Source: a virus. From it: DNA of 64,000 nt. The stretch lies in the IMG/VR virus record IMGVR_UViG_3300030490_000001; one strand, given 5' to 3'. The notes under the pieces are model-generated. The model was not told the origin of the DNA and searched no databases. It worked only from the letters and a program-made list of their open reading frames with translations. The translations under genes and the position numbers were made by a program. Shown here piece after piece: positions 14,241-55,381 of this stretch (its first letter is position 1; each line of letters opens with the position of its first letter).

Positions 14241-14286
14241 CAAAAAAATAGGCCGGAGCCCCTGCTCAGGGGCCTACCGGCCTATT
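14241..14286 (-). terminator. strong hairpin plus T7 (minus-strand rho-independent terminator, possibly bidirectional)
   Basis: ATAGGCCGG..CCGGCCTAT forms a 9-bp outer stem with an inner GCCCCTG/CAGGGGC stem. It is flanked by A7 on the plus strand, which is T7 on the minus strand. It lies between motif site 5 and the helicase start. Confidence 0.7.
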
Positions 14287-14290
14287 TGAA

Positions 14291-14300
14291 TGTCACGACT
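14291..14300 (-). promoter_or_regulatory. TCGTGAC-core motif site 5
   Basis: Reads ctcaaaaaaAGTCGTGACAttcaa on the minus strand. It starts 16 nt after the stop of the HTH gene, and the terminator hairpin follows before helicase ATG 14186. Confidence 0.6.
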
Positions 14301-14316
14301 TTTTTTGAGTAACAGG

Positions 14317-14559
14317 TTATCGCTTACGGGCTTCCGCTTTCTTATGGGCGACGATCACCTCTTCCATGGTGTCGATGATCTCGATCGTCTTAGGCAACTT
14401 GCGACGCCATCGATCCGGCGTAGCGCGTGAGATGCCGGCACGTGCGCATACTTTCGTCAGGTTGATGCCGGCCCTATTTGCGTCGTCAATGATTGTTTCC
14501 AGCCGTTCGAGAAAGACCTCCCCGAACGTTTCTCTCTTGGCTTGCGGCTCCTTGCTCAT
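14317..14559 (-). CDS. helix-turn-helix DNA-binding regulator
   Basis: 80 aa. INLTKVCARAGISRATPDRWRRK looks like an HTH. The gene is divergent from the operator-rich 14560-14774 region. Confidence 0.6.
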   Translation of the reverse strand: MSKEPQAKRETFGEVFLERLETIIDDANRAGINLTKVCARAGISRATPDRWRRKLPKTIEIIDTMEEVIVAHKKAEARKR

Positions 14560-14618
14560 GAAAGGAATCCCCTTGGGTTGTTTGCGTTGCCGGATGGTAT
14601 CCGCAAGCCTGCGTGGTA

Positions 14619-14738
14619 GTCAAATTCGATCAAAAGGTATCAGCTAAAAAGTCGTGACACTACAAATTCACCCCTAAGTTCGGTGGCTAGATGATCAAAA
14701 ACATGTTGATCTTTTTTGATCAACTAAATATGATCAAT
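14619..14738. promoter_or_regulatory. operator-rich divergent control region (HTH gene versus recombination operon)
   Basis: TCAAATTCGATCAAAA precedes motif site 6. After it come TGATCAA 14692, TTGATC 14706, TTGATCAA 14716 and TGATCAA 14731. Confidence 0.55.
14650..14659 (+). promoter_or_regulatory. TCGTGAC-core motif site 6
   Basis: Reads gctaaaaAGTCGTGACActaca. There are 115 nt to ATG 14775, with GATC operators in between. Confidence 0.6.
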
Positions 14739-14774
14739 GCCACACGAACAAAACCCAAAGGGGGAATAGCTTAG

Positions 14775-15626
14775 ATGTCGCAGGAAAAGCAGCCAATTGG
14801 TCTGTTCCCAAGCATGACCAATGACGAGTACCACTCCGCGCCAGGTGACTCCAGCTCGACCATCAAGGCCGTAATGGAACGCTCCCTCCTCCACTACTGG
14901 TACGACTACGAAAACCACGATCGCGACGCGGACGAGGATGATCAGGACGACGACGAAGGTCATGACCTCGACCTCGGCACCGTGATCCATGGAGCCATCC
15001 TTGAGCCGGATCTACTGCATGAGATGTACGTAGTGTCCCCGCCGTTCAATCGCCGCACGACAGCCGGACGCGTTGAGCGCAAGGCGTTCTTTGCCGAGCA
15101 TCGTGGCGTTGCCGTCCTGACCGAGAAAGAGGTCAAGGCCGTCTACGCCATACGCGACCGTCTCTACAAGCACCCGAAGATCTCCGCGCTACTGCAGGGT
15201 GGCCGCGCCGAGCAGTCCTTTTTCTCCCGCTGCCCGCGCACCGGGATGATTCGCAAGTGTCGCCCTGACTTCATGCATGACAACGGCTTCGCGGTCATCG
15301 ACGTCAAGTCGGCAGCGACCGCTCACCCGAAAGAGTTCAGTCGTGACGCTGGCAAGTTCGCCTATGACATCTCCGTGCCGTGGTACCTCGACACGATCAA
15401 GGATCTCTACGGCGAGGCGCCGCAACACTTCATCTTCATCCCCATCGAGAAGATCGCTCCATATGCGATGGGCTTGTACTACTGCAAGCCCGCCGATATC
15501 GAGCGCGCGCGCGCGTCTTACCAGAAGCACTGGGATCGCCTCCTCGAAGCACGCAAGACCAACTACTGGCCCGACTACGCCGACGAGGCGCAGCCGCTTG
15601 ACCTCCCTCCTTACCTGATCCGCTGA
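14775..15626 (+). CDS. PD-(D/E)XK (RecB/Cas4-like) exonuclease
   Basis: 283 aa. RPDFMHDNGFAVIDVKSA provides D...D.K. It is the first gene of the recombination operon. Confidence 0.7.
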   Translation: MSQEKQPIGLFPSMTNDEYHSAPGDSSSTIKAVMERSLLHYWYDYENHDRDADEDDQDDDEGHDLDLGTVIHGAILEPDLLHEMYVVSPPFNRRTTAGRVERKAFFAEHRGVAVLTEKEVKAVYAIRDRLYKHPKISALLQGGRAEQSFFSRCPRTGMIRKCRPDFMHDNGFAVIDVKSAATAHPKEFSRDAGKFAYDISVPWYLDTIKDLYGEAPQHFIFIPIEKIAPYAMGLYYCKPADIERARASYQKHWDRLLEARKTNYWPDYADEAQPLDLPPYLIR

Positions 15627-15632
15627 GAAGCC

Positions 15633-16991: not shown

Positions 16992-17029
16992 CCCCATACG
17001 CGACATACATCACAAAAAAGAGAACACAT

Positions 17030-18208
17030 ATGAATCAGCAAATTTCCAACTCTGACACTCAAGATCAGGGGGTTGCAGCCAGAAATGCGTTTGACCGCAT
17101 GATGATGGACAGCAACACATCCATGAACTCCGGAGCTGTGGCTATCGAGTCGCAGCGCGCCATCGCGGAAGCGCGCGGCCAGATGCAGCTTGCGCGGATG
17201 TTCCCGCGCAGCCTCCACGCCGCTACGAAAGAATTCCTGGAGTCATGCAAGTCACCCGAATTCGCAGCCGAGGCGTTCTACACCGTCAAGAATCGCGGCA
17301 GCGGCCCCAGCATCCGCTTTGCTGAAGAGGCCGCGCGATGCTTCGGTCATTTCGACTACGGCCACCGCGAGCTGTCACGCAGTGAGGGCAAGTCGGAAAT
17401 CGAGGTCTTCGCCTGGGACAAGGAAAAGAACAACGTCTCCAAGCGCCAGATAACCGTCATGCACGTGCTGGATGCCGGCGGTGGATCGCGCAAGCTGACC
17501 CAGCAGGGTGATATCGACAACAAGATCGCAAACGTCGCCAGCAAGCAGATGCGCGGCCGTATCCTAGCGCTCCTCCCCAAGCCATTGATCGCGACAGGCA
17601 AAGCCGAGTGCCAGCGCACGCTTGCCGGAGGCAATGATAAGCCGATGCCTGAGCGCATCCTGCGCGTTACGCAGCGCTTTGAGCGCATGGGCATCACGCC
17701 AGCACAGATCGCCACCTACCTCGGCAATTCCGTCGATGAGATGACCGCCGAGCAGATCGGCGACCTGCAGGGCGTGTTCAACGCGATCAAGGAAGGCGCC
17801 AATATCTCCGAATACTTCGGCGGCGATGCTGAGCATGGTCAGGACGGCGAGCAGCAGGACACCGGCGCGGCGATTGCCAGCCTGCAGAACCGCGCTACGA
17901 GCAACGGCCCGGCAAAGCAGGGTGACAAACCCTCCCCGGCCAGCAGCGCCGACAAGGCCACCGCCCAGGGTGCCGCAAAGGCATCCGGCACCGGTGACAG
18001 CTCGGGCAACGCTGATCCCGTGGCTGAGTCTGCATCCAGTCAGAAACAAACGGCAGCCAAGAAAGAAACGGCGGCCAAGAAAGCCGCACCAACCCCGGCA
18101 CCGGAGCCGGAGACTGAAGGCGAGCCGAAGCTGGAAGCCGAGCGGGCAACTGAGCAGAATGCGGCTGACGGTCAAGACGATGCCGGTGACGGGGATGACG
18201 TGTTTTGA
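17030..18208 (+). CDS. putative single-strand annealing / recombination protein with an acidic low-complexity tail
   Basis: 392 aa, sited between the ATPase and helicase of the recombination module. The SIRFAEEAARCFGH..VFAWDKEKN segment reminds me of RecT/Red-beta-like SSAPs. The function is inferred from context. Confidence 0.45.
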   Translation: MNQQISNSDTQDQGVAARNAFDRMMMDSNTSMNSGAVAIESQRAIAEARGQMQLARMFPRSLHAATKEFLESCKSPEFAAEAFYTVKNRGSGPSIRFAEEAARCFGHFDYGHRELSRSEGKSEIEVFAWDKEKNNVSKRQITVMHVLDAGGGSRKLTQQGDIDNKIANVASKQMRGRILALLPKPLIATGKAECQRTLAGGNDKPMPERILRVTQRFERMGITPAQIATYLGNSVDEMTAEQIGDLQGVFNAIKEGANISEYFGGDAEHGQDGEQQDTGAAIASLQNRATSNGPAKQGDKPSPASSADKATAQGAAKASGTGDSSGNADPVAESASSQKQTAAKKETAAKKAAPTPAPEPETEGEPKLEAERATEQNAADGQDDAGDGDDVF

Positions 18209-18396
18209 ATCGCCAATTCCTGAGTCCGCAGCAAGTTGTAGAACGGTACGGAGAAAACGCGCCATCCATCCATACCCTGGAGAGCTGGCGCCGCTCAGCA
18301 AACAAAGGGATGGGGCCTGACTTCGTCAGGCTTGGTCGAAAGGTCGCCTACCCGATGGACAAGCTTATTGAATGGGAAAATCGGGGAAATCCCTGA
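18205..18396 (+). CDS. AlpA/excisionase-like HTH protein
   Basis: 63 aa. LSPQQVVERYG......L..WR......P.FV.LGR.V.Y fits the AlpA/Xis-type winged HTH pattern. Confidence 0.55.
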   Translation: MNRQFLSPQQVVERYGENAPSIHTLESWRRSANKGMGPDFVRLGRKVAYPMDKLIEWENRGNP

Positions 18397-18445
18397 CTCT
18401 GTTCACGAATCGGGCGGCACGATCGTGCCGCCCTTGGGGATCTTC

Positions 18446-19564: not shown

Positions 19565-19574
19565 GGAGTAACCC

Positions 19575-20024
19575 ATGATCGTTCCTGTCAAGGTAAAAAA
19601 GCTACACCCCGATGCCACCACGCCGCGCTACGCGACCGATGGTGCCGCGTGCTTTGACTTACATGCGCTAGACGATGGAACGCCTCATCCGAATGACGGC
19701 CATGCGGTTCACTACCGTACCGGCCTCGCCTTTGAAGTCCCTGCCGGATGGGTAATGCTGATCCATAGTCGTAGCGGGCATGGATTTAACAGCGCGCTGC
19801 GACTGTCCAACTGCACCGGCGTTATCGACTCCGATTATCGTGGTGAGGTCATGGTGTCTGTTCGTTTCGATGCCAGTGGAGATCGACGTAGCACCAAGCT
19901 GCGTGCGGGTGACCGCATCGCGCAGGCGATGATCCTGCCCATCCACACCGTTGAGCTTATCGACGCCGATACGCTGTCTGTGACCGAGCGTGGCGAGGGT
20001 GGTTTTGGCAGCACGGGAGCATGA
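19575..20024 (+). CDS. dut: dUTP diphosphatase
   Basis: 149 aa with dUTPase motifs: ATDGAACFDL, SRSGHGF, GVIDSDYRGEV, GDRIAQ and ERGEGGFGSTG. Confidence 0.9.
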   Translation: MIVPVKVKKLHPDATTPRYATDGAACFDLHALDDGTPHPNDGHAVHYRTGLAFEVPAGWVMLIHSRSGHGFNSALRLSNCTGVIDSDYRGEVMVSVRFDASGDRRSTKLRAGDRIAQAMILPIHTVELIDADTLSVTERGEGGFGSTGA

Positions 20025-20028
20025 CGCC

Positions 20029-20541: not shown

Positions 20542-20550
20542 CCTATTGAC

Positions 20551-20576
20551 GATTGATCATTTTTGATTGATCATTT
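20551..20576. promoter_or_regulatory. direct repeat GATTGATCATTT x2 upstream of integrase 1
   Basis: The copies are at 20551-20562 and 20565-20576 (14-bp period), 44 nt before ATG 20620. Confidence 0.5.
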
Positions 20577-20619
20577 ATGCGCACGCGGCCCACCCGGGCC
20601 GATTTTTTTAAGGGGCGTC

Positions 20620-21912
20620 ATGCCGAAGCTCACCAAAGACATCATCGATCGCGCCGCCGCGCCAGCGTCTGGCTCATCCTGCATATGGGATGCCGAGATG
20701 CCCGGCCTCGGTGTCCGCATCCAGTCGTCCGGCCGCAAGACCTACGTCGTTCGCTACCGGACGCGCAATGGCGTGGCGAACTCCTCGCGCGATGAGCGTA
20801 CGCAGCGCAAGGTGACGCTTGGGCCATGCAACTGCATCACCCCGAAAAAGGCGCGCGAGCTGGCCGGCGAGATCATGGCTCGCGTATGGGGTGGCGAGGA
20901 CCCGGCGAAAGATTTCAAGGTCGCCAAGAAGGGACACGCTACCGTCGAGCAGCTCTTTAAGGGCTACGTCATGTGGATGCGCGACAACGGCAAGGCCAGC
21001 GCCGATGAGGTCGAGCGTGCACTGCTGACGGCAAAGACAGGCGCTGCCGCAGATGCGCTCGGGCGCACGACCCACGCATGCGAGGTCACGCCCAATGACG
21101 TCATCAGGCATGTGTCGACCTTTTTCCAGCGCGGAAAGCGCAGCTCCGCCGACAAGGCGCGCAGCTACATCGCCAGCGCCTACGCGTGGGGGATCTCATC
21201 CGCCAATGACTACACGGTGGCGCACCGGCAGGACTGGGGCGTCACCACCAATCCGGCCGCCATCATCGCGCGTGACGCTGGCGCAACCATGCCGCGCAGC
21301 CGGAACCTATCGCATGAGGAGATCCGGCGCCTATGGTCGGACACGCTCGACAGCGACTGCTTTGTGCGGGACGTTGGCGCCGCGATACGCATCCTGATCG
21401 CGTGCGGACAGCGGGTGCAAGAAACGCTGCGCGTTGACGGCATCGAGGTTGGGGATAACCTCGGCGAGTGGCATATGCCTATCGAGAAGACCAAGACCAA
21501 GCGCCGCGCGCATTCGATCCCGTTGCCAACCATCATCATGCCGACGATCCTTGACCTGATCGTCACCCATGGCACCGGACCGCTGTTCCCGTCCGACACC
21601 ATCGACCACCGCACGATCAACCGCGCCATCCGCCGGTGGCTGATCCGCGCTGACGTCGACGTCGCGCCATTCCAGACGCGTGACATCCGCCGGACGTGGA
21701 AGTCACGCACCGCTGACGCTGGCATCGACCGGTTCACGCGCGATCTGATCCAGCAGCATGCCAAGAGCGACACCGGCTCCAAGAATTACGACTGGGCCGA
21801 CTACCTTCCGCAGATGCGTGCCGCCATGGGCAAGTGGTCGGGATGGCTAGGCATCGTCATCGGAGGAGGTACGCCAACCCAGCATGGGGAGCCATCAATC
21901 CGAGCCGCATAA
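20620..21912 (+). CDS. int: tyrosine integrase 1 (P4-type, DUF4102-like N-terminus)
   Basis: ORF trimmed to ATG 20620 (MPKLTKDII..GLGVRIQSSGRKTYVVRYR). The C-terminal catalytic region has R..E...L.., HD.RRT and a terminal Y region. Confidence 0.85.
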   Translation: MPKLTKDIIDRAAAPASGSSCIWDAEMPGLGVRIQSSGRKTYVVRYRTRNGVANSSRDERTQRKVTLGPCNCITPKKARELAGEIMARVWGGEDPAKDFKVAKKGHATVEQLFKGYVMWMRDNGKASADEVERALLTAKTGAAADALGRTTHACEVTPNDVIRHVSTFFQRGKRSSADKARSYIASAYAWGISSANDYTVAHRQDWGVTTNPAAIIARDAGATMPRSRNLSHEEIRRLWSDTLDSDCFVRDVGAAIRILIACGQRVQETLRVDGIEVGDNLGEWHMPIEKTKTKRRAHSIPLPTIIMPTILDLIVTHGTGPLFPSDTIDHRTINRAIRRWLIRADVDVAPFQTRDIRRTWKSRTADAGIDRFTRDLIQQHAKSDTGSKNYDWADYLPQMRAAMGKWSGWLGIVIGGGTPTQHGEPSIRAA

Positions 21913-21927
21913 ACGCTTGCATTCAAA

Positions 21928-21937
21928 AGTCGTTACA
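21928..21937 (+). promoter_or_regulatory. TCGTGAC-core motif site 7 (variant AGTCGTTACA)
   Basis: Reads ttcaaaAGTCGTTACAcaaag. It starts 15 nt after the integrase 1 stop, followed by a hairpin plus T8 and then GTG 21990. Confidence 0.45.
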
Positions 21938-21948
21938 CAAAGCTATCA

Positions 21949-21977
21949 GGGCGCGCATACGCCCGCTAATTTTTTTA
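21949..21977 (+). terminator. weak hairpin plus T8 downstream of integrase 1
   Basis: GGGCG cgcata CGCCC forms a 5-bp GC stem, followed by gctaaTTTTTTT. It lies between motif site 7 and the TraR-like gene. Confidence 0.45.
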
Positions 21978-21989
21978 AGAGAGAATGTA

Positions 21990-22220
21990 GTGTCTGACGC
22001 CGATATTGCCCAAGTTCATGAACTGCGCGACTGGGAGCGCAACAACGCCCCTCGCAAACCAATTCCGAAATATGCTCCGAACGACTATTCATATGGACCC
22101 GAGTCCTGCGTCGAGTGTGGTGACGATATGCCGGATCTGCGACGCGAGATGGGCGTGCTCAAGTGCACTGATTGCACCAGCGCAGTCGAGGCACGCGCAA
22201 AGCAGTGGGCGCCCGCGTAG
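21990..22220 (+). CDS. TraR/DksA-family C4 zinc-finger protein
   Basis: GTG 21990 has AAGAGAG upstream. CVECGDDMP....R......C.DC is typical of phage TraR/DksA-like proteins. Confidence 0.65.
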   Translation: MSDADIAQVHELRDWERNNAPRKPIPKYAPNDYSYGPESCVECGDDMPDLRREMGVLKCTDCTSAVEARAKQWAPA

Positions 22221-22230
22221 GGCGCCCTTT
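22207..22230 (+). terminator. hairpin at the convergent junction of the TraR-like gene and the late operon
   Basis: GGGCGCC cgcgtag GGCGCCC forms a 7-bp stem followed by TTT. Confidence 0.45.
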
Positions 22231-24156: not shown

Positions 24157-24205
24157 CCGCTACCTCGTTTAATGCCGTGATTGAAACAGTTCAGGTAGAT
24201 TGTGG

Positions 24206-24215
24206 CGTCACGACA
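24206..24215 (-). promoter_or_regulatory. TCGTGAC-core motif site 8
   Basis: Reads aggaaTGTCGTGACGccaca on the minus strand. It starts 3 nt after the stop at 24219, with 49 nt to ATG 24156. Confidence 0.6.
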
Positions 24216-25278: not shown

Positions 25279-26064
25279 TTAAAATCCGATAGCTATGACT
25301 GTAAATGCTGCGATTGCGCCCAATACAGCAGTTAGACCGCCGTTCTCGACGTTTGCCCCAGACGCTGTTCGATTAGTGAGCGAAATCGTGTTGTAACCCT
25401 GTGAGGTAGCGATGAAATCCGGCGCAAATGCGCATGCCATTGGCTGATTTCCTGATGGGAATGAAATCGGCCAGGTCAAAGTATTTATACCACCCGCAGT
25501 GCTTGGCATTACGGCGCGTACCCACTGAATAACCAGTCCGCCTGGAATCTTCTGATAGCCGGAAGTGCCATTGGCAATCGAAGACGCGAAGGCTCCAGAC
25601 GCGCCAAGTTGAGTAGATCCAGCGACTGCAATCCAGTTGCTTCCGCCATTTCGAAGCTTTACCGTATCGCAAAAATTCAGCGTAATTGAAGTGACGCTGG
25701 CGCCGCTTTGAGTCATGCCGCCAATGCTGTCCGTTCCGGCAGCCTTGACAACAATCGAGTTAGATGACGCAAATACCTCAATAACTGCCCCAATTTGCGA
25801 CGCAACAATGGGTGGTAATGTCAAAGTACATGCCACGCTTGCGGAAATTGATTTACCCATATCCGCTACGGTCAATTGGGTATTTGCTACGTAGTTTGTC
25901 ACACCGGAGTAGCTGCCGAGCGCGCGCTGTACGAAATCCGTTGTTGCAAGATTATCGCTGTTATCAAACTGCGCCGGACTTTGGTTGGCCGCGACATTAC
26001 CGGCGCCATCAGGCGTAAGAAGCGACAGAACAGCAGCAGCTAGGGCAGAACGTGTACCGGACAT
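25279..26064 (-). CDS. short tail fibre / receptor-binding protein (cassette 2)
   Basis: 261 aa. It has the fibre motif PAQFDNSDNLATTDFVQ. The C-terminal domain (GYQKIPGGLVIQWV..TWPISFP) is shared with the long fibre. Confidence 0.7.
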   Translation of the reverse strand: MSGTRSALAAAVLSLLTPDGAGNVAANQSPAQFDNSDNLATTDFVQRALGSYSGVTNYVANTQLTVADMGKSISASVACTLTLPPIVASQIGAVIEVFASSNSIVVKAAGTDSIGGMTQSGASVTSITLNFCDTVKLRNGGSNWIAVAGSTQLGASGAFASSIANGTSGYQKIPGGLVIQWVRAVMPSTAGGINTLTWPISFPSGNQPMACAFAPDFIATSQGYNTISLTNRTASGANVENGGLTAVLGAIAAFTVIAIGF

Positions 26065-28898: not shown

Positions 28899-28918
28899 CT
28901 CCAGATTTATTTCTGGAG
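28899..28918 (-). other. hairpin that sequesters the SD of the 28430-28891 gene
   Basis: CTCCAGA tttatt TCTGGAG forms a 7-bp stem. On the mRNA the 3' arm runs UCUGGAGG, so 4 of the 5 SD bases are paired. UUUU follows. Confidence 0.5.
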
Positions 28919-28923
28919 TTTGG

Positions 28924-28933
28924 TGTCACGACT
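28924..28933 (-). promoter_or_regulatory. TCGTGAC-core motif site 9
   Basis: Reads catcAGTCGTGACAccaaa. It starts 7 nt after the stop at 28941, then comes the SD-sequestering hairpin, then GTG 28891. Confidence 0.6.
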
Positions 28934-33421: not shown

Positions 33422-33434
33422 GCCGTGATTTTCA

Positions 33435-33444
33435 TGTCACGACA
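33435..33444 (-). promoter_or_regulatory. TCGTGAC-core motif site 10
   Basis: Reads cttaTGTCGTGACAtgaaaatcacggcATG. There are 13 nt to ATG 33421, and no SD. Confidence 0.6.
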
Positions 33445-39407: not shown

Positions 39408-39438
39408 TCAAAAAGAAGGGGCGCCCGAGGGCGCCCCT
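39408..39438 (-). terminator. hairpin plus T-run after the tube gene
   Basis: AGGGGCGCC cgag GGCGCCCCT forms a 9-bp stem, followed on the minus strand by TCTTTTT. Confidence 0.65.
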
Positions 39439-39460
39439 TGCCTGTAGTGCATTAGCCTAA

Positions 39461-39470
39461 TGTCACGATT
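39461..39470 (-). promoter_or_regulatory. TCGTGAC-core motif site 11 (variant AATCGTGACA)
   Basis: Reads tctAATCGTGACAttagg. It overlaps the tube gene stop codon. The terminator hairpin follows, then ATG 39392. Confidence 0.5.
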
Positions 39471-42779: not shown

Positions 42780-42793
42780 GCACACAATGATCG

Positions 42794-42803
42794 CGTCACG
42801 ACT
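42794..42803 (-). promoter_or_regulatory. TCGTGAC-core motif site 12
   Basis: Reads caaaaaaaAGTCGTGACGcgatc. There are 14 nt to ATG 42779. It lies in the 60-nt divergent gap shared with the plus-strand gene 42840. Confidence 0.55.
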
Positions 42804-42839
42804 TTTTTTTGAATCGGTCGTGAAGGTAAAGTCACTCAC

Positions 42840-43619
42840 ATGGCAGACTTCAAAATCTCCGTCGACCTGTCCGGCATAGCCGGTGCAGCGGCATCAATCG
42901 TCAATGAGCGCGTCTTTCCGCTGCTCACGCAAGCCGTGCGCGCAGTAGCGCAGCAGACGGCGATCAGTTGGATCGATGGCATCCAGCGTGCCAACCTATG
43001 GAACGTTGAAAAGCAGCAGTACGCTGGGTCGGTCAATGCTGTGATGACCGGGCCGTTTTCGGCCATGGTCTCGTCGGACTATGACAAGGCTGAGGAGATC
43101 GAAAACGGACGGCCGCCGCGTGACCTGAAAACGATGCTGAACACCAGCCTCAAGGTCCGCATCAGCAAGAAGGGCCGGCGCTACATGTACATCCCATTTC
43201 GGCACAACACGCCAGGCAATGAGGCTAGTGGCAATGCGATGCCGCCGGACGTATACGCGGTGGCGAAAGCCATGACGCCGTCGTCGATCACGGGACAGAC
43301 GACGCGCCTGTCCGGCACCGGCGCGTATGACATGAAGACCCAGCAACGCCTGACCGTGCCCCAGAACACATATTCATGGGGAGAGAAAATCAACGTTCCT
43401 GGCGCGGCAAAGAACCTGCAGGGTATGTACCGGTTCGACACCAGCTCCGGCAGCTCGAAGTCGAGCAGTTACCTCACGTTCCGCACGATGGCCGAGGGAT
43501 CACCCGGTTGGATCGTGCCGGCTCAGCCGGGTCTAGATATCGCCAAGAACATCGCCCTCGACATGCAGCCAGTCGCCGAAAAGGCTTTCGGCGAGGCCAT
43601 TGCGCGGACACTCGGTTAA
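42840..43619 (+). CDS. hypothetical virion-module protein encoded on the opposite strand
   Basis: 259-aa ORF with protein-like composition. It is the only plus-strand gene inside the 22-57 kb late region, and its stop overlaps the stop of the convergent gene by 4 nt. Confidence 0.5.
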   Translation: MADFKISVDLSGIAGAAASIVNERVFPLLTQAVRAVAQQTAISWIDGIQRANLWNVEKQQYAGSVNAVMTGPFSAMVSSDYDKAEEIENGRPPRDLKTMLNTSLKVRISKKGRRYMYIPFRHNTPGNEASGNAMPPDVYAVAKAMTPSSITGQTTRLSGTGAYDMKTQQRLTVPQNTYSWGEKINVPGAAKNLQGMYRFDTSSGSSKSSSYLTFRTMAEGSPGWIVPAQPGLDIAKNIALDMQPVAEKAFGEAIARTLG

Positions 43620-45388: not shown

Positions 45389-45416
45389 TAAAAAAATGGC
45401 CGCAGGGGGCGGCCAT
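45389..45416 (-). terminator. hairpin plus T7 after the capsid-accessory genes
   Basis: ATGGCCGC agggg GCGGCCAT forms an 8-bp stem. On the minus strand it is followed by TTTTTTT, and TTTT lies on the plus side as well. Confidence 0.7.
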
Positions 45417-45436: not shown

Positions 45437-45446
45437 GGTCACGAAC
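45437..45446 (-). promoter_or_regulatory. TCGTGAC-core motif site 13 (variant GTTCGTGACC)
   Basis: Reads tgaGTTCGTGACCggcat, directly after the stop at 45447. The hairpin plus T7 follows, then ATG 45377. Confidence 0.45.
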
Positions 45447-47545: not shown

Positions 47546-47586
47546 TTGGTTGCCTTTCTTCCTTGTTGCCTATTCCAGGCCGGTGG

Positions 47587-48216: not shown

Positions 48217-49103
48217 GACTTGCTCCGTTGTGTGATTCCAGTTTTCAAATCGCGCGCGAAGCGCTCTACCCATTCCGCCGACTTCTCAATCGGGAGACTG
48301 AATTTGGTGTGTGCGTGACGGGCCATGTCTTTCATGGACGGGTCATCGCCCAACGTGCCCGCGCTAAGATCAGCAGCAAGCGCATTGCGAAAATCGAGGT
48401 ACTTTTTGATGCCGTGGTCCAGCGACTGATGGCCGAGCGCACCGCCGCCGGTGAGCGCGGAGACGTCCGTGCTTGAGCTCGCCTCCATCGCCTTGGCAAG
48501 ATCCAGGCCGCCGACTCCCCAGCACTTCGCCAGGATGTCGAACGGTACCGTCGCGACAGTGGCGACGTTCTGATTCACTGGCGTACGGCTAAAGCCGATG
48601 TTCGACCAGCGAACCTTTTTGACGATCGCTTTCTTGAGCTGCGTTGTCGGATCGATCTCTACGTCGCGAGCCAGGACGGCGCCGCCCACGGACGGGTACC
48701 ACTTGGCCGGCGGATTGCGCTCGGTCATCGACGCCCAGAACTGGTTGCCCTTGTCGGCAGCCGGGCCGTCCCCGGAAACGATCTCGCCTTTGACGAACGT
48801 CTTGTCGCGGTTGAACGTCACGTCGACCGGGTGACCGATCTCGAACTGGCTATAGTTGGGGATGCCAACCTTGGCGCCAATCATCGTGATGTGATCGATG
48901 TCCAGGTTGCCGTACTTTTTGAAGTACGGCGCGCTATCTTGCAGCGCCTTTTGGAGCACGACTTCATTCTGCGCGTCAGTCGTCTCGTCGCTCGCCTCGA
49001 TATACACGTAGCGCTTCTCACCCTCTTGAAATGGTGTCGCTTTGAGCATCGATCCGATGCTCAAGTATTCGGGTGATGCTGCGAGAATTTCGCGGTCGTT
49101 CAT
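48213..49103 (-). CDS. XkdF-like prohead protease
   Basis: ORF trimmed to ATG 49103 (MNDREIL..). YVYIEASDETTDAQNEVV...AL...A..F.KYGNLDIDH resembles XkdF-type putative proteases. Motif site 14 ends 14 nt before the ATG. Confidence 0.55.
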   Translation of the reverse strand: MNDREILAASPEYLSIGSMLKATPFQEGEKRYVYIEASDETTDAQNEVVLQKALQDSAPYFKKYGNLDIDHITMIGAKVGIPNYSQFEIGHPVDVTFNRDKTFVKGEIVSGDGPAADKGNQFWASMTERNPPAKWYPSVGGAVLARDVEIDPTTQLKKAIVKKVRWSNIGFSRTPVNQNVATVATVPFDILAKCWGVGGLDLAKAMEASSSTDVSALTGGGALGHQSLDHGIKKYLDFRNALAADLSAGTLGDDPSMKDMARHAHTKFSLPIEKSAEWVERFARDLKTGITQRSKS

Positions 49104-49117
49104 AGCAACAATTTTCG

Positions 49118-49127
49118 TGTCACGACT
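49118..49127 (-). promoter_or_regulatory. TCGTGAC-core motif site 14
   Basis: Reads gcaaataAGTCGTGACAcgaaaattgttgctATG. There are 14 nt to ATG 49103, and no SD. Confidence 0.6.
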
Positions 49128-49153
49128 TATTTGCTGCGAGCAGCGAGTCGCGA

Positions 49154-49735
49154 TCACGCATGCTTCGCCCCCGCTACTTCGTCAGGAGTGAACACGAATC
49201 CGCTCTTGCGCGGGAACGCCTGGAATCCCCAGGTGGGCGCAGTGCGGTGATGGATGCCGTGCGTCGGCGAACGATGGAACTTCGCATCGAGCGGCAGCAT
49301 GTTCGCCATGGAGTCGACGAACGTCTCCGGCTTTTTTGGATCGAATGCGGCCCAATCGAATCCGCGCGCCGTCGTGAGCTGGATGACCAGGTAGATCAGC
49401 GACTGCTCGACGGGGAACGTCTCGCCAGTGGGCTGATCGGTGATCGGATCGAGGACGGGGAGCGCCGTGATTTTGCCTGTAGCAACGCCCTTTACGGTCG
49501 CCCAGTCGATCGCGTCGGCGAAAGCCCATTCGCAGAACACGTGATGATATTCGGGGTGCGCCTGGCCGCTTACGGCGCAGACGAGGCCGGCCTTGTGGCC
49601 TGCGGTCTTGGTATGGCGGAACGTTGCGGACTCGCCTCGCGGCGCTGCGTGGTCGGGGTAATACTCGACCTCAGCCTCACTGGATTTTGCCAGATGCTCA
49701 TGCGCCTCGACTGGCGCGACAGCAGTGTCTTTCAT
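49154..49735 (-). CDS. His-rich, possibly HNH-like protein
   Basis: 193 aa. CAVSGQAHPEYHHVF and NMLPLDAKFHRSPTHGIHH loosely fit a beta-beta-alpha-Me/HNH layout. This is a weak call. Confidence 0.4.
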   Translation of the reverse strand: MKDTAVAPVEAHEHLAKSSEAEVEYYPDHAAPRGESATFRHTKTAGHKAGLVCAVSGQAHPEYHHVFCEWAFADAIDWATVKGVATGKITALPVLDPITDQPTGETFPVEQSLIYLVIQLTTARGFDWAAFDPKKPETFVDSMANMLPLDAKFHRSPTHGIHHRTAPTWGFQAFPRKSGFVFTPDEVAGAKHA

Positions 49736-49740
49736 GACTC

Positions 49741-49766
49741 GCCATACATCCTGTTTGGTGTATGGC
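49741..49766 (-). other. hairpin between motif site 15 and start codon 49735
   Basis: GCCATACA (10-nt loop) TGTATGGC forms an 8-bp stem with no T-run. It ends 5 nt before the ATG. Confidence 0.55.
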
Positions 49767-49774
49767 GAGTTTCA

Positions 49775-49784
49775 TGTCACGACT
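49775..49784 (-). promoter_or_regulatory. TCGTGAC-core motif site 15
   Basis: Reads gagaataAGTCGTGACAtgaaa. It overlaps the stop codon of the 1271-aa gene by 1 nt. The hairpin follows, then ATG 49735. Confidence 0.6.
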
Positions 49785-52700
49785 TATTCTCCCAACATCT
49801 CCAACGCCTTTTGCAGCGTGTTGGATTTCTGCATGGCGGTCACGATCTTGTCGATCGCCGCGTTGATGCGCTGACGTTCCTCGCCCTCGGGAAACGGCTT
49901 CTGATCGCCAAAGAGCGGATCACGGTAATACTTGTTGTCGGCCTTAGCTGAGAGGTAGTCATTGCGACGACCCTTATCGGCGAGGCGGTCCTCGATCCAG
50001 CCCTGGAACGCGCGCGCGGCCATCTCTTCGGTCGTGGCCCAGTATTTCGCGCTACCGCCGTCCAGCTTGGTCGCCTCCAGTGCGAACGACGACATGGGCT
50101 TGCCACTATGCACCTTGATCTCACCGCCCTCGGCGTTGCCGCCAAAGTGCGCGTGCGCGAGAGTCTTCCAATCGCCGGAGATCTTTTTCGTGCGGCGGGA
50201 CGCGCTCGATTCCTTGCCGCCCTCGGTGTTGAAGTGCCGGTCCAATCGCTGCACGGCATCGTTCACGTTGGCGGACTCCTTGATGATGGCGAGCGGCCCG
50301 GTCTTTGTGAAGCTCTCCCGACTCATGACGCGCTTTGCTTGTGCGTGATCCTGTGCCGTGTAGGCGTGCGTGTTGGATATGCGCAGGCCGCCCTCCCACA
50401 TCACGTGACGGAAATCGGCGAACGCGTCGCGCAGCTCACCCGGCGGCAACGCCTCGGGGGTTTCGGTGGCAAAGGTGTCCTTGTTGACGGCCTGGACCGT
50501 CTCAGCCTCGGCGATCATGTTGTCCAGCGCGTGGAACCATTCATGACCCAGTGCGCCGCCGCCTCCCAGCTTGGTGAGGTTGATCACGCGCTGCACGGGT
50601 TCATAGTGAGCGCGGGCCGCGCCGCCGAAACCAGCATTGCCGGTGCCGCGCGCGCCAAACGCCAGCGCAAGGCGGCCGTTCAGCGCGATGGTTTTGTCAT
50701 CGGCACCGAGCAAGTCAGCTAGATCCGCGAAAGCGGCAGCAGACTGCTCCGTGTGGAACTTCGCGCTGACCGGGTCGCGCAGTACCCAGTTGCCCGACTG
50801 CACGTCGCGCAGGCCGAACGCATCCTTGAGTTCCATGGTCGATTCGGGAGTGACGGTACGGCCGCCGACGCGCTCATAGGAGTCCGCTACCTGGAGCTGG
50901 AACCGTTGCCCCTCTTTGGTGATCTTCGGTGCACGCGTGATCTCTTTCTCTGCCCACGACCAATCCTTGACCTTGCCGGCCCTGGCGGACGCCATGTGAT
51001 TGGCGAATGCATCGGAACCCTTGGCGCGGCGATAGCGCAGGACGCCGATGAAGCGATCGCCCATGGTTTGCCACGCGCGGTGCAGCGGGTTTTCGGTCTT
51101 GTTGCGCACGTGCGCCGCGAGCGCAATGGCGCGTTGCTGGCTGGCGATGGACTGCCGGCGCGAGCTGATCTCGTCGCGACGCGGCTTGCTAGAGTGGAGC
51201 TTTTCACTCCAGGCTTCCCATGTCTTGTCATGCTCAGCCTTTGCATCAGCGAGTGCAGCGTGGTGTTCTGGCTTGATCTCCCAACCACGGCGCTTACGCT
51301 TACCGATCTCATGCTCGGCCGCGTACTGAACGGCCTTCTGTTTTTGTGCCAGCGCATAGAGCGGGTCAGCCTCCGCATCGAGTGCGCGGTATTCGCGGAA
51401 CAGGTCGTGGTTTTCCTGCGCCAACTCCTCGTACACCGCCGATTCCTCGGCGTTGAGGATGGTGCCGTCGTACTCCTCTTGCAGATCGGACAGAACCTCA
51501 CTTACCTCCTCGGTAGTCTTGCATGACTCCAGCCGATCGCGCAGCGTCTGCAGGCCGAGGGTGTAATCCTTCCGGGCCTGCGGGCTTTCATGGCTCGGCT
51601 CCGTGCCGATGGCCGCGTAGATTCGGTCGATGATGAATCCAGTGCCCGGGTCCATGCCGCCGTCGCGCAGCGCAGTCCAATCCACTGCGCCGAACAGATT
51701 CGACTTGGTGATCAGGTCTTTCGCTTCACGCGGGTTCTGCTCGATCTGCTCCCAGTTGATCGCCGTGACGTATACGCGCGCGCCCTCGGCCTTGGCGACC
51801 TTGATGACCTGCTGCGCGGTAGCGAGCTCTTTGCGCGAGCCGGACACGTAACCGGTATCGGCGTAGCGGTAATTCTTACTGTTGGGATTGTCGACGTCAT
51901 CGATGTCCTGCGATGCCGGCTCGACCTTCGGCCTGGATGCTCCGCGCTTCACCTTGCGCTCGCGCAGGCCAAGCTCGCCGAGTACGTCATCGCGGGTGAG
52001 GCCGAGCGCATTAGCCAGGCCATCGATCACCGCGACCGGCTGCGACTTCACGCCAGGCGTATCGAGGCCCCCGTGAAGCTTGATCGCTTCCTGCAGTGTC
52101 GCCGCGAGCTGCTCACGACCTCCCATCTGCTCGATCTTGTCGCGCAGCTTCTGGAGATTCATCTCATGCTGGTCGGGCTCTGTAGCGGGCACTTCATCCT
52201 CACCAGCGACATCGTGCGCCACCTCACGCAGCTTGGCCTTTGCTTCATCGCTGTGCGGGTCTTTCGCGAGCGCGTCGGCAAGCTCCTGGCGCTGCACGGA
52301 CTCGGCATCGGTCGGCGCTGCCTTGGCTTGCTCCTGCTTGTGCCAGCGGCCGTCGCGGAACACGAGCGTGCCATCAGCGCCATCCTTGGTTTCTCCATCC
52401 TTTGGGCCATCGGGATCGGAACTGGGATCGTCTTTCTCTGCGCTCTCCACATCATGGCCGTGCCGTTTCGCGAATGCGACGGCCTCGGTGGCCGTGTCAA
52501 ATGTGTTTTTCTTCGGCCCGAACCGCTCGCCGAACTGCTTTCCGGCCTGGATCTGCTCAGGGGTCGCATCCTTGTAGTGGATTTCATCCGGCACGCGACC
52601 GACGTAACCGAATTTGCCATTCGGGAACTTGACCACGTGCAGGCCTAGGCCACCATTCTTGTCCAGGGTCGGCACGACCGGCCCCTTGCTTGCAGCAGCG

Positions 52701-53599: not shown

Positions 53600-53604
53600 G
53601 GGTA

Positions 53605-53625
53605 GCCGATTGTGTGGATATCGGC
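53605..53625 (-). other. hairpin between motif site 16 and start codon 53599
   Basis: GCCGAT (9-nt loop) ATCGGC forms a 6-bp stem. It ends 5 nt before the ATG. Confidence 0.45.
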
Positions 53626-53635
53626 CTCATTGTCG

Positions 53636-53645
53636 TGTCACGATT
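53636..53645 (-). promoter_or_regulatory. TCGTGAC-core motif site 16 (variant AATCGTGACA)
   Basis: Reads gtgtAATCGTGACAcgaca. It is part of the palindrome TCGTGtCACGA. The hairpin follows, then ATG 53599. Confidence 0.5.
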
Positions 53646-53661
53646 ACACGTTAGCGCCGAG

Positions 53662-54186
53662 CTAGGCGGCGCTACTCATGAACAGGATAACGGTGGACAT
53701 ACCCAATCCTTTGATCATTGCAGGGGCTTCATTGGTATCCTTCACCTTGCGCACGAACTCATCCACCGGCATCGCCGTAATGGGTCCAAGGAAGCGCGGG
53801 TCGCTGTAGTGCTGCAGATAGGCTGCGCGGGCATCCACGTCGTTTTCAAAGCCGATCATGCATTTGTCTTCATCGTAGTTCGCCCAGTCGCCCGCCTTGC
53901 GCTGGTGCACGATGTAGACCATTGGTGCGGCCAGATTCGGCCCTAGGTAGACGTCAACTTCGTCGCCGTCGACCGCCTCGGATCGCTTGATATAACCGTA
54001 GTCGTGGAGCATCTTCGTCTGCCAGCCTTTGCCGGTGCGAGTGCTGCCAACGGGGTTCTCGATCGCGATGTCCAGGCCCTTCCACTTCACGACGGGCTTG
54101 CGGTAATTACCGGCGCGGGCCTGGGCGTCAGTGGGTTTGACCCACACCTCGCCGCGCACGTGCGACTTAGTCAGCATGCTTGGCAC
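53662..54186 (-). CDS. inorganic pyrophosphatase-like domain protein
   Basis: 174 aa. IENPVGSTR and DGDEVDV match the family I PPase signature D-[SGDN]-D-[PE]-[LIVMF]-D-[LIVMGAC] as I remember it. Confidence 0.5.
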   Translation of the reverse strand: MPSMLTKSHVRGEVWVKPTDAQARAGNYRKPVVKWKGLDIAIENPVGSTRTGKGWQTKMLHDYGYIKRSEAVDGDEVDVYLGPNLAAPMVYIVHQRKAGDWANYDEDKCMIGFENDVDARAAYLQHYSDPRFLGPITAMPVDEFVRKVKDTNEAPAMIKGLGMSTVILFMSSAA

Positions 54187-55321
54187 TCAGGTTGATGCGC
54201 AGCCACTCGGCGAACGCTGGGTCATCACCGGGCTCCGGCTTGATCTCCGGCAGCCAGAATCCACGGCAGCTCGGATGCTGCACACCGGAGGCCGGCCACC
54301 ACATCTGGTCAGGGTCGCGCTCGACCAGCACGCCGTCGACGCGCTGACGCGGCGCTGCTGATCGGCCGATGTTGGTCTTGCCGGGCCACACCTGTTTCCA
54401 CCCATCCTTATCCGGCGCACCCGGCTCGACGACCTCGAACACCATGCCATCGATCTTGCGGCAGAACGCGCACGCGCCGGTGTAGTGCTCCCCGCGCTTA
54501 ACGTGGTCGCCGGGGCTCATCATGGCGATGTAGCCCTGGTTGGAATTCTCAACCGACTCGGTCACCGCGATGCGACGCCAATCGCGGTTGAGGGTACCAA
54601 ATTGCTCCAGTAGATCCTGTTGCAACTTTCCGGGGTCGAGCACGCCGAGTGCCCGCTCCTCGGTTCGCTTCATGACCAGCATGCGCATGCGGTGACGGAC
54701 ATCATCAGCGACGCGTTGCACATTCTCCACCGTGTGCGCGGTCGCGTATTCAAGCACCGCATGCTGCGTCGGAAGCATCGGGAACGTCGACGCTGCGCCG
54801 GCCACGGTGGTAGGCAGCCTTTCCATCAGGGTATCGGCCTGCTGCAGCGACAGATCCTGCATGTTCGCCTGGACGCGACCCATCAGCGTGGAGCGCACGC
54901 CAAGCCACTCGGCCTCGGTGCGCATATCACCCACCGGGAGGTAGCGCTGCACCAGGTAGTCGACCAGCATCATGCCGTCTTCAAGCGTGAATGCATCGGC
55001 CGGCACGTTCGCCAGATACATTTTCACCAGGCTGATTTCCGCCGATGTCCAGCGCTGCATCATGCCGGCGGGGATCGGGCCGCGCGATCCGCCTGCGTAC
55101 TTCTCATTGTTGAGCCACTGGGCCAACTCGCTGCGGAATCCTTCCAGGCGCATCAGGCCGCGCTGCGTGAATAGCTCGACCATACGTCGCAGGAACGGGG
55201 AGTTCATCTGCGCCCATATGGCGTCGTCGTCGGGATTATCGGTGAGCGCCTTGAATAGGCTTTCCAGCGCGCATTCGCACTGGTCATCACTGAGCTTGCT
55301 GATATCGAGTAGATGAGACAT
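54167..55321 (-). CDS. MuF / SPP1 gp7-like head morphogenesis protein
   Basis: 384 aa. IAVTESVENSNQGY and the CAFCRKIDG segment are typical of Phage_Mu_F. It lies directly downstream of the portal gene. Confidence 0.7.
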   Translation of the reverse strand: MSHLLDISKLSDDQCECALESLFKALTDNPDDDAIWAQMNSPFLRRMVELFTQRGLMRLEGFRSELAQWLNNEKYAGGSRGPIPAGMMQRWTSAEISLVKMYLANVPADAFTLEDGMMLVDYLVQRYLPVGDMRTEAEWLGVRSTLMGRVQANMQDLSLQQADTLMERLPTTVAGAASTFPMLPTQHAVLEYATAHTVENVQRVADDVRHRMRMLVMKRTEERALGVLDPGKLQQDLLEQFGTLNRDWRRIAVTESVENSNQGYIAMMSPGDHVKRGEHYTGACAFCRKIDGMVFEVVEPGAPDKDGWKQVWPGKTNIGRSAAPRQRVDGVLVERDPDQMWWPASGVQHPSCRGFWLPEIKPEPGDDPAFAEWLRINLSAKHAD

Positions 55322-55334
55322 GCAGGGAGGTTAC

Positions 55335-55344
55335 CGTCACGATA
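55335..55344 (-). promoter_or_regulatory. TCGTGAC-core motif site 17 (variant TATCGTGACG)
   Basis: Reads attttttATCGTGACGgtaacctccctgcATG, directly after the portal terminator T-run. There are 13 nt to ATG 55321, and no SD. Confidence 0.5.
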
Positions 55345-55381
55345 AAAAATCGCCCGCGCTTGCATCCGTACAGCGCGGGCG
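55344..55381 (-). terminator. rho-independent terminator after the portal gene
   Basis: CGCCCGCGCT (11-nt loop) AGCGCGGGCG forms a 10-bp stem. On the minus strand it is followed by ATTTTTT, which runs straight into motif site 17. Confidence 0.75.

Follow-up and report, generated by a model that had tools for sequence, protein, structure and literature searches.

A putative 16-bp promoter with leaderless or hairpin-gated start sites recurs at the gene junctions of a temperate myovirus

The virus DNA considered here, a stretch of 64 kb under the IMG/VR record IMGVR_UViG_3300030490_000001 (hereafter the window, at its full length), carries at many gene junctions a short recurrent motif followed by a hairpin, often with a T-run, and then by the next start codon. 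A preliminary description of these cassettes raised a question: if the motif is a promoter, how can it stand directly upstream of an intrinsic terminator? Regulated read-through of the lambda Q type had been put forward as a solution, and translational gating by the hairpins as a secondary idea. The answer proposed here is that the motif is the upstream half of a family-specific 16-bp promoter and that the cassettes are either leaderless or gated by a hairpin; on comparative sequence evidence, a probability of about 0.6 is given to this reading. The promoter-before-terminator paradox would then vanish at sites 5, 7, 9, 15 and 16 (numbers of the preliminary description), where the predicted start lies inside the hairpin, and would be kept at site 11 only.

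The window is phage DNA throughout, with about 60% GC. A myovirus structural module occupies the minus strand at 23.2-57.2 kb (portal, MuF-like, 1271-aa protein, HNH, protease, major capsid protein, sheath, tube, tape-measure-like and baseplate genes); exonuclease, ATPase, Dda-like helicase and integrase genes are found on the plus strand at 14.8-21.9 kb, and helicase, SSB and primase genes on the minus strand at 7.6-14.2 kb. The phage, also found on metagenome contigs of 88-119 kb, is temperate, i.e., it has integrases and a small helix-turn-helix (HTH) gene at 14317-14559. The closest named phage by DNA is Pseudomonas phage Jeremy, with about 73% identity in the capsid gene only; Jeremy is syntenic with the window and its protein identity is about 50%. 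The portal protein has relatives in Bordetella phage PHB04 (genus Phabquatrovirus), Pseudomonas phages Dolphis and Touem01, Aeromonas ST4, Yersinia fHe-Yen8-01, E. coli ECML-606-1 and Morganella Mecenats66. About 15 IMG/VR contigs belong to the same family, together with prophages of Steroidobacter, Microvirga and an Acetobacteraceae metagenome-assembled genome.

The motif, which the preliminary description left unspelled, is GTCGTGACA in the sense of the flanking genes. Its recurrence at gene junctions is genuine: 14 exact copies are present in the 64 kb when about 0.5 are expected, 37 copies with at most one mismatch are counted vs. 19.7 +/- 3.6 in shuffles, and its variants are the most over-represented 9-mers of the window. 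All intergenic copies share the direction of the downstream gene, and at ten junctions the gap between the stop codon and the motif ranges from -1 to 17 nt. In full, the element reads GTCGTGAC-N2-NANNNT, i.e., 16 bp in which the A and the T of the hexamer are invariant. Matches to GTCGTGACNNNANNNT with at most one mismatch number 25 in the window (4.1 +/- 2.0 in shuffles), and 14 composite sites are exact. In 16 related genomes the hexamer NANNNT is found at offset 2 in 57 of 77 exact GTCGTGAC cores, vs. about 4% expected; as a control, it accompanies only 1 of the 17 coding or antisense TCGTGAC copies of the window. About 19 such putative promoters appear to head most operons of the window.

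With its conserved A in second and T in sixth place, the hexamer is of the sigma70 -10 type. Positions -30 to -1 relative to the box, which include the -35 region, have no information content, so that there is no -35 hexamer; nor is the box an extended -10 (TGn), its TG being at -18/-17 and not at -15/-14. Other identities of the motif were considered and rejected. GTGACA is not a -35 hexamer, since no -10 is found 17 nt downstream, and none of the consensus sequences of sigma54, extracytoplasmic function (ECF) sigma factors, sigma32, CRP, FNR and LexA fits the motif. The likeness of AAGTCGTGACA to AAGTCGTAACA of 16S rRNA (same sense, 1 mismatch) was judged coincidental because relatives lack the AA prefix; its chance, estimated post hoc, is about 0.02. 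The GTCGTGAC copies inside the SSB gene (12143-12158, minus strand) and the VRR-NUC gene (10715-10730, minus strand) reflect coding constraint and are not promoters; both are kept in Jeremy at the same codons (Gly-Arg-Asp and Val-Val-Thr, respectively).

The element is present in PHB04, Jeremy, ECML-606-1 and about 20 metagenomic or prophage relatives, i.e., in phages of alpha-, beta- and gamma-proteobacteria, including the Steroidobacter, Microvirga and Acetobacteraceae prophages. These loci were found by protein anchoring, as an exact 14-mer scan of IMG/VR gave scattered single chance matches only. In spite of a protein identity of about 50%, the element stands at the same junctions across the family (portal, MuF, protease, adaptor and baseplate), and about 12 relatives have it upstream of the portal gene in the same arrangement as in the window. 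Literature searches with the motif string and with Dolphis gave nothing relevant, and the paper on Mecenats66 that compares the genomes of the family (PMC9503643) does not mention promoters.

The spacing between the element and the start codon is also constrained. Among 106 sites, an ATG is found 14 nt after GAC in 30 and 15 nt after it in 12 (42/106 together; N14 and N15 classes), i.e., 7-8 nt after the T of NANNNT, and every one of these ATG opens an open reading frame (ORF) of at least 60 codons. The N13-16 class starts with ATG 44 times, with TTG once and never with GTG. No Shine-Dalgarno (SD) tetramer occurs at the seven window sites of the fixed-spacing class, and the N-termini predicted from these ATG are homologous between phages. 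A -10-like hexamer close before ATG together with the lack of SD is the pattern of leaderless genes; in Deinococcus-Thermus the -10 of such genes lies 6-7 bp before the ORF (PMC12340547). Since the A2/T6 hexamer located 6-7 nt before the start codon matches this signature, it is considered as a -10 likely to drive leaderless mRNA. The start codons given in GenBank seem too far downstream in some relatives (e.g., a Jeremy gene is annotated at 25667, its N14 ATG being at 25607). Moreover, back-to-back pairs of elements 2-60 bp apart fill the divergent regions of the window (57250-/57281+ and 42802-/42817+) and of relatives; at such distances no room is left for other promoters. The fixed -10-like partner, the conservation across the family, the divergent pairs and the fixed ATG spacing all argue for the promoter reading of the motif.

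The hairpins were folded in two ways, and minus-strand sites are designated below by the highest coordinate of the motif. In windows hand-picked around them, all nine named hairpins are found where they had been placed, with folding energies (dG) of -9.2 to -31 kcal/mol and z-scores of -3.4 to -8.1, except that of site 7 (dG -9.5, z -1.6); the hairpin of site 5 (14248-14285) reaches dG -31 and z -5.6. An unbiased refolding was then made on 50-nt windows taken at one fixed offset from every motif, the z-score being calculated against shuffles. Values below -2 are obtained at 5832, 14299, 28932, 39469, 45445, 49783, 53644 and 57281, i.e., at 8 of the 20 motif sites vs. 7 of 60 random windows. 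Thus, out of the eight cassettes of the preliminary description, six (sites 5, 9, 11, 13, 15 and 16) fold better than shuffled sequence and two (sites 7 and 20) do not, the motif of site 13 being in addition degenerate; two further cassettes, at 5832+ and 57281+, had been missed. The T-runs are as described. A GC-rich stem with a U-run, i.e., an intrinsic terminator, is found at 14248-14285, 39417-39438, 45396-45416 and 55344-55381, and in a weak form at 21949-21964 and 28899-28918; the hairpins 49741-49766, 53605-53625 and 62121-62135 have no U-run. The reversed order, terminator then motif, at the portal/MuF junction is correct, though it is not the sole case since 7453+ has it as well.

The position of the predicted start (+1) was set at 7 nt after the T of NANNNT. 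It falls in the loop at 28932 (+1 at 28910) and 5832 (5854), and inside the 5' arm at 49783 (49761), 53644 (53622) and 21929; at 57281 (57303) it coincides with the final base of the 5' arm, and at 14299 (14277) with that of the outer 5' arm. The 3' arms contain the SD (GGAGG at 28932, GAGGGG at 5832, AGGGG at 57281) or abut the ATG. The promoter would lie in the 5' strand, and the SD or the start codon lies in the 3' strand, at 28932, 5832, 57281, 49783 and 53644. At site 9 the 5' arm carries CTCC (anti-SD) and the 3' arm GGAG; it had been stated that this stem pairs four of five SD bases, which is right (GGAG of GGAGG). The same geometry is observed in relatives: their 5' arms begin at about -12..-2 and finish at -2..+7, and the 3' arms extend as far as the start codon.

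The strongest comparative data come from the junction that follows the 381-aa baseplate gene. In ten phages the orthologous junctions all have GTCGTGAC-N2-NANNNT and then directly a hairpin, with GGAG in the 3' arm opposite CTCC or a similar anti-SD in the 5' arm, while the flanking pairs differ (CTCCAGA/TCTGGAG, CCTCCG/CGGAGG, CTCCATT/AATGGAG, GCTCCAA/TTGGAGC and ACTCCAGT/ACTGGAGT, for example), i.e., the stems show compensatory changes. Their dG ranges from -5.8 to -15.5, z is -2.4 or lower in 8 of the 10, and eight of the predicted +1 positions fall in the loop, the other two on the last base of an arm. RNAalifold on a MAFFT alignment of these ten junctions gave no structure, as offsets of 1-3 nt between the stems lead to misalignment; the hairpins are seen when each sequence is folded separately. 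Similarly, behind the 174-aa gene the window phage, PHB04, a Steroidobacter prophage and the contig L124 share the succession of ATCGTGAC-N2-NANNNT, hairpin and ATG, with stems that are unrelated among these four phages. The layout of site 16 recurs with unrelated stems in three relatives (PHB04, L138 and L124, in the last at a displaced position), and L124 retains the hairpin orthologous to that of 49783 with compensatory changes. The statement that the architecture of the hairpins is conserved and not their sequence therefore holds, also across phages, and translational gating is the idea that best fits these comparative data.

From these observations we infer the positions of transcription starts, a trans-acting factor and a differential translation or termination of transcripts, as follows. 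NANNNT would be the -10 hexamer, its A being -11 and its T -7, and the GTCGTGAC box, which would span -22 to -15, would replace the -35 and be read by a presumably phage-encoded specificity factor. In a first layout, with ATG 14-15 nt after GAC, +1 would be the A of ATG and the mRNA leaderless. In a second layout the hairpin begins at the -10 or immediately behind it. The 5' arm, in many cases an anti-SD, would precede or span +1, while the 3' arm either includes the SD or directly adjoins the start codon. A read-through RNA coming from upstream would have both arms and thus a masked ribosome site, or would terminate where a U-run follows (at 14299 and, weakly, at 28932 and 21929), whereas a locally started RNA, without the 5' arm, would be translatable. 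The leaderless layout would have the same effect, as an internal AUG without SD would be left unused on read-through RNA. With local starts and masked read-through RNA, each downstream gene would therefore depend on its own promoter; the paradox would disappear at most cassettes because transcripts started at the promoter lack the 5' arm. At 14299, for instance, the terminator would stop read-through from the HTH gene (14317-14559), which has its own sigma70-like promoter, into the helicase operon, while the box promoter would start at the end of the outer 5' arm of this terminator.

Several points weigh against this reading. The start has been placed solely by sigma70-type geometry, from the ATG at N14/N15, and the location of +1 inside the 5' arm is partly a geometric necessity, i.e., not an independent test, since the hairpins nearly fill short spacers. 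Two of the eight hairpins are no better than shuffles in the 50-nt windows (z -0.7 at site 7, -0.07 at site 20), and raw dG are no lower than those of random 50-mers of this 60% GC genome. At site 20 the stem is weak (7 bp, vs. 5 bp in the earlier count, and no T-run) and the hairpin is entirely downstream of the predicted start. The -10 hexamer is imperfect in two elements (14299 and 14651). Gamma-proteobacteria generally translate leaderless mRNA with low efficiency. No sigma factor, activator, late-transcription factor or Q-like family was detected among the about 70 window ORFs scanned (Pfam, PHROGs and NCBIfam). Lastly, site 11 (39469) has a complete strong terminator, 39417-39438, at +9 to +32, which the model does not explain.

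The terminator of site 11 has dG -23 and z -3.9, with the predicted +1 at 39447, 8 nt upstream of the stem. At the same junction Jeremy has a terminator only, and PHB04 has a terminator and then the element. Either the element of site 11 is weak or vestigial, or the terminator attenuates, or the polymerase loaded at this promoter resists termination in a Q-like manner.

The last of these options brings back regulated read-through, in which a terminator would follow each promoter or loading site, and the polymerase would be rendered termination-resistant by a phage factor bound at the GTCGTGAC box, as with lambda Q. The full terminator just past the predicted start of site 11 fits this scheme, and the box lies directly upstream of the -10, roughly the place where lambda Q binds; in addition, the first product of the unit leading to the terminase is a conserved Cys-rich protein of 181 aa, and the opposite order at the PHB04 junction shows that either order is tolerated. 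Such a mechanism is needed at just one of about 19 sites, however. At the other terminator-bearing cassettes the predicted start is inside the stem, and most members of the family have terminators upstream of the element or none. No Q or antiterminator family was detected among the about 70 ORFs scanned, about 30 kb of the phage lying outside the window and Q families being diverse, and the low-confidence model of the 181-aa protein matches no fold of the PDB, Q proteins included. The lambda-type solution of the preliminary description is thus superfluous at most cassettes, and as a general explanation it is improbable. Another reading of the many asymmetric intergenic sites, which have a single orientation relative to transcription, is that of « stoperators » of the mycobacteriophage L5 type, where an immunity repressor bound to asymmetric boxes blocks prophage transcription; the temperate nature of the phage, with its integrases and small HTH gene, is in keeping with this. 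A roadblock needs neither the coupling of the box to NANNNT at a fixed 2 nt nor an ATG, as often here, at a fixed distance. The short divergent regions have no other promoter signal, and a separate palindromic candidate operator, TTGATCAA, is found at sigma70-like early promoters. Operator specificity normally diverges with immunity, while the box is identical in phages of three proteobacterial classes, which disfavours an immunity operator, here regarded as very unlikely, and favours a phage-encoded reader.

An element acting on the RNA level has also to be considered, the transcribed GUCGUGAC and the hairpin being then a processing site, a 5' or 3' stabiliser or the binding site of a translational regulator. 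It would agree with the fixed distance to AUG, with the many sites without SD and with the compensatory changes in stems; the motif can moreover pair with the sequence just before AUG at 33443 and 24214, and the N14 spacers are mildly palindromic. However, where divergent motifs are 2-60 bp apart an upstream promoter would not fit, and the invariant A and T are kept where AUG is 50-130 nt away and are unpaired in long hairpins. The pairing in spacers is weak: three pairs are marginally above shuffles in the N14 class (p 0.01-0.05) and none outside it, for which reason a conserved spacer hairpin (closing pair A11-T15) was rejected as the main constraint. Scans for Rfam families and for tRNA found nothing, so no Rfam family matches the element. 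Such an RNA-level element is held to be quite unlikely. Compaction only, i.e., hairpins that are terminators or 3' stabilisers of the upstream genes and overlap the next promoter in gaps of about 45 nt, without any gating, has a small chance of being correct. Four hairpins are canonical terminators, plain terminators exist at several junctions of Jeremy and PHB04, and overlap is unavoidable in such short spacers; yet the conserved part of the baseplate stem is exactly the anti-SD:SD pairing in ten phages, most of them without U-run, and several 3' arms end exactly at the start codon.

The promoter reading has precedents. In phage T4, late promoters of gene e (lysozyme) and of I-TevI lie in the 5' strand of hairpins that mask the ribosome-binding site, a mechanism which is established: read-through transcripts are poorly translated and local transcripts, which lack the 5' strand, are translated (PMC3014915). 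The likeness concerns the promoter located in the 5' strand of a masking hairpin and the use of a -10-type element only, without -35. The differences are that the element here is GTCGTGAC-N2-NANNNT, the T4 late promoter being TATAAATA, read by gp55/gp33; that the phages here are temperate, of about 95 kb and unrelated to T4; and that the layout is predicted at many junctions, with a leaderless variant, vs. few genes in T4. The window system would thus work like the T4 gate without being a member of the T4 system. The leaderless promoters of Deinococcus-Thermus (PMC12340547) also have a TANNNT-like hexamer 6-7 nt before ATG, no SD and a start codon that is almost always ATG. They differ from the present ones by the extra invariant 8-bp box 2 nt upstream of the hexamer and by the hosts, which are here Proteobacteria, where leaderless genes are rare. 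The lambda promoter PRM, which gives a leaderless cI mRNA, is also comparable to these elements.

In IS10/Tn10, according to the passage of PMC2965389 that cites Davis, Simons and Kleckner (1985), the fold-back of read-through transcripts protects from external promoters; outside RNA carries a complement that hides the start region, and the own promoter starts inside the repeat. This case concerns a single transposase gene without dedicated promoter motif, whereas a genome-wide phage programme would be concerned here. The Lpa-dependent late promoters of phage P1 are dispersed and have a -10 and a conserved short element near -22 that replaces the -35 and is used by a phage activator. Many dispersed promoters with a short element near -22 are thus common to both; the P1 element is a 9-bp inverted repeat, while the present box is asymmetric and 2 nt from the -10, and no Lpa homologue was seen. 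In lambda PR'-qut-tR' the Q site is next to the -10, and there is one such module per phage. The position of the box is alike, but a terminator shortly downstream is found at site 11 only, there are about 19 sites, most terminators are upstream of or overlap the predicted start, and no Q gene was found. As for the stoperators of L5, they are uncoupled from any -10 or start codon and their sequence tracks immunity groups; they are also numerous, asymmetric, intergenic and in one orientation relative to transcription, but the present box is coupled to NANNNT and invariant across hosts.

The candidates for the reader of the box are proteins of unknown function conserved in the window phage, Jeremy and PHB04, i.e., the Cys-rich 181-aa protein and a 93-aa zinc-ribbon protein encoded next to the origin-like region described below, a 63-aa HTH protein, and proteins of 392 aa and 259 aa. 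Their genes lie at 531-1076, 253-534, 18205-18396, 17030-18208 and 42840-43619, respectively. None of these ORFs has a match in Pfam, PHROGs or NCBIfam, and a sequence search of the PDB was empty. The AlphaFold model of the 181-aa protein has a predicted local distance difference test score (pLDDT) of 65, which is low, and gives no Foldseek hit with E < 1 in the PDB.

The individual elements are given below from the portal region to the other end of the window, and then for site 20. The portal element, GTCGTGAC-ag-CACCAT (57235..57250, minus strand), belongs to the leaderless class: it has no SD and the portal ATG (57228) is 14 nt after GAC. In several relatives TGATCAAAAAAGATCAA-like boxes occur 16-24 nt or more upstream of the portal promoters. 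The divergent partner, GTCGTGAC-ag-CACGAT (57281..57296, plus strand), is 30 bp away and is followed by the hairpin 57298-57317 (z -2.2), whose 3' arm with AGGGG precedes the ATG 57322. After the portal gene, an intrinsic terminator (55344..55381, minus strand; dG -23.9, z -3.4, T6 tail) stands upstream of the MuF element, ATCGTGAC-gg-TAACCT (55328..55343, minus strand), and the ATG 55321 of the MuF-like gene is 14 nt after GAC; the N-terminus of its product is homologous in relatives. The element of site 16, ATCGTGAC-ac-GACAAT (53629..53644, minus strand), is followed by the hairpin 53605-53625 and the ATG 53599 of the 1271-aa gene. That of site 15, GTCGTGAC-at-GAAACT (49768..49783, minus strand), abuts the TAA of the 1271-aa gene and is followed by the hairpin 49739-49768 (dG -18.1, z -8.1) and the HNH ATG 49735. 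The protease element, GTCGTGAC-ac-GAAAAT (49111..49126, minus strand), has the protease ATG (49103) 15 nt after GAC and is also upstream of the protease gene in Jeremy and PHB04. It must be noticed that near-identical copies of ATAAGTCGTGACA(t/c)GAAA(c/a)T stand on either side of the HNH gene (49154-49735), within 49103-49786, and that neither Jeremy nor PHB04 has this gene here; it resembles a mobile gene that entered behind the protease promoter, which was thereby duplicated.

Site 13 has an intrinsic terminator (45396..45416, minus strand; dG -15.5, z -4.3, T7), and its « motif » at 45438-45445 is TTCGTGAC without NANNNT; it is probably a plain terminator and not a promoter cassette. The adaptor element, GTCGTGAC-gc-GATCAT (42787..42802, minus strand), has the ATG of the head-tail adaptor gene (42779) 15 nt after GAC, the N-terminus being MIVM vs. 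MITM in Jeremy. Its divergent partner, GTCGTGAA-gg-TAAAGT (42817..42832, plus strand), has the ATG 42840 of the conserved 259-aa gene 15 nt after the core; the counterpart of this pair in Jeremy is 16268-/16286+. At site 11 the element ATCGTGAC-at-TAGGCT (39454..39469, minus strand) overlaps the TAA of the tail-tube gene and is followed by the terminator discussed above. The baseplate element, GTCGTGAC-at-GAAAAT (33428..33443, minus strand), has its ATG (33421) 14 nt after GAC, and the orthologous junction of Jeremy also carries it, at 25585. At site 9, GTCGTGAC-ac-CAAACT (28917..28932, minus strand) is followed by the hairpin 28899-28918 and the GTG start 28891. The lysis-region element, GTCGTGAC-gc-CACAAT (24199..24214, minus strand), has a 36-nt leader (GAC to ATG 50 nt) with the SD GAGG. 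Site 7 is a degenerate element, GTCGTTAC-ac-AAAGCT (21929..21944, plus strand), which lies after the integrase gene and before a weak hairpin (21949-21964) with a T-run and the GTG 21990; PHB04 has a similar degenerate site after its integrase. The gene at 21990-22220 (plus strand), conserved in Jeremy and PHB04, encodes a TraR/DksA-type C4 zinc finger. Proteins of the TraR/DksA family bind the secondary channel of RNA polymerase, and this one may contribute to the control of phage transcription.

The site 5 element, GTCGTGAC-at-TCAAAT (14284..14299, minus strand; imperfect -10), overlaps the terminator 14248-14285, with the helicase operon downstream, and that of the exonuclease operon, GTCGTGAC-ac-TACAAA (14651..14666, plus strand; imperfect -10), has a leader which contains TTGATCAA boxes and a sigma70-like promoter. 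The region 14594-14734, by the conserved HTH gene (80 aa), has sigma70-like promoters leftward (TTGACT-18-TACCAT) and rightward (TTGATC-17-TATGAT) together with TGATCAA/TTGATCAA boxes; it is probably the immunity or early switch. TTGATCAA is also found at 1120, 2302, 2321 and 62150 (5 copies vs. 0.7 expected). Three more elements are on the plus strand: GTCGTGAC-gc-CATAGT (5832..5847), followed by the hairpin 5846-5870 (z -2.8) with GAGGGG in its 3' arm and by the GTG 5874; GTCGTGAC-ac-CACCAT (1718..1733), with the ATG 1742 16 nt after GAC; and GTCGTGAC-ca-TAGCAT (7453..7468), which lies after a terminator (7414-7440) and faces a convergent gap without downstream gene. The 7453 element could yield an antisense or non-coding RNA. 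It is followed, at the 3' end of the primase gene, by an alternating purine-pyrimidine stretch of about 55 nt (7504-7560) prone to Z-DNA or to a long hairpin. Site 20, GTCGTGAC-ac-CAGACT (62088..62103, plus strand), has a hairpin at 62120-62136 without T-run and a 116-nt leader (130 nt from GAC to the ATG 62226).

An exact GTCGTGAC at 1112-1119 (minus strand) adjoins a TTGATCAA box, has no NANNNT partner and lies 35 nt upstream of the conserved gene of the Cys-rich 181-aa protein (531-1076); it could be a putative binding site without promoter function, e.g., for autoregulation. The surrounding 1105-1741 is a divergent non-coding region of 640 bp, with many GGGGGACG/GGGGACA repeats flanking an AT-rich core with (CTT)n, which looks like an iteron-type replication origin; at the matching position Jeremy has a region of 815 bp with GGTTACC/GGTAACC repeats instead. 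Among the other genes, two encode tyrosine integrases (20563-21912, plus strand; 58334-59374, minus strand). The second one, just upstream of the portal region, adjoins an O-acetyltransferase gene (59669-60901) and a HicA/HicB pair (61219-61891), which suggests a moron or an island inserted in the phage. The gene 10964-11464 (minus strand) matches the N-terminal domain of dATP/dGTP diphosphohydrolase (PF18909, E 1e-21) and has no counterpart in Jeremy; enzymes of this type accompany base-modification pathways in other phages.

The ingredients of the proposed system are known, i.e., phage promoters that use a special upstream element and no -35, leaderless genes whose -10 is close by, and promoters in hairpins that mask the ribosome-binding site. 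What appears new is this 16-bp promoter, its conservation across a little-studied and widespread family, and the occurrence of both layouts genome-wide in Proteobacteria. On a broader and only tentative reading, which we hold to be possible but on balance doubtful, the whole family of temperate myoviruses of about 95 kb (Phabquatrovirus and Dolphis-like phages, in alpha-, beta- and gamma-proteobacteria) might run most of its lytic programme from the -35-less 16-bp promoter, with a phage-encoded reader and leaderless or start-site-gated mRNAs. The reader could be a new sigma-like, Ogr/Lpa-like or Q-like protein, the pair formed by the Cys-rich 181-aa and the 93-aa zinc-ribbon proteins being one candidate.

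The element would thus point to a transcription specificity factor conserved across host classes; if this factor travels with the polymerase, the promoter-proximal terminator of site 11 would be explained. For genome scanning, a promoter followed by a terminator is not necessarily a paradox once the start site has been placed, and the model predicts true start codons that gene callers overlook for want of an SD. It would show a T4-style gate in genome-wide use, alongside leaderless genes, in Proteobacteria, and it gives a testable promoter model for a family with isolates on E. coli, Pseudomonas putida, Bordetella, Aeromonas and Yersinia.

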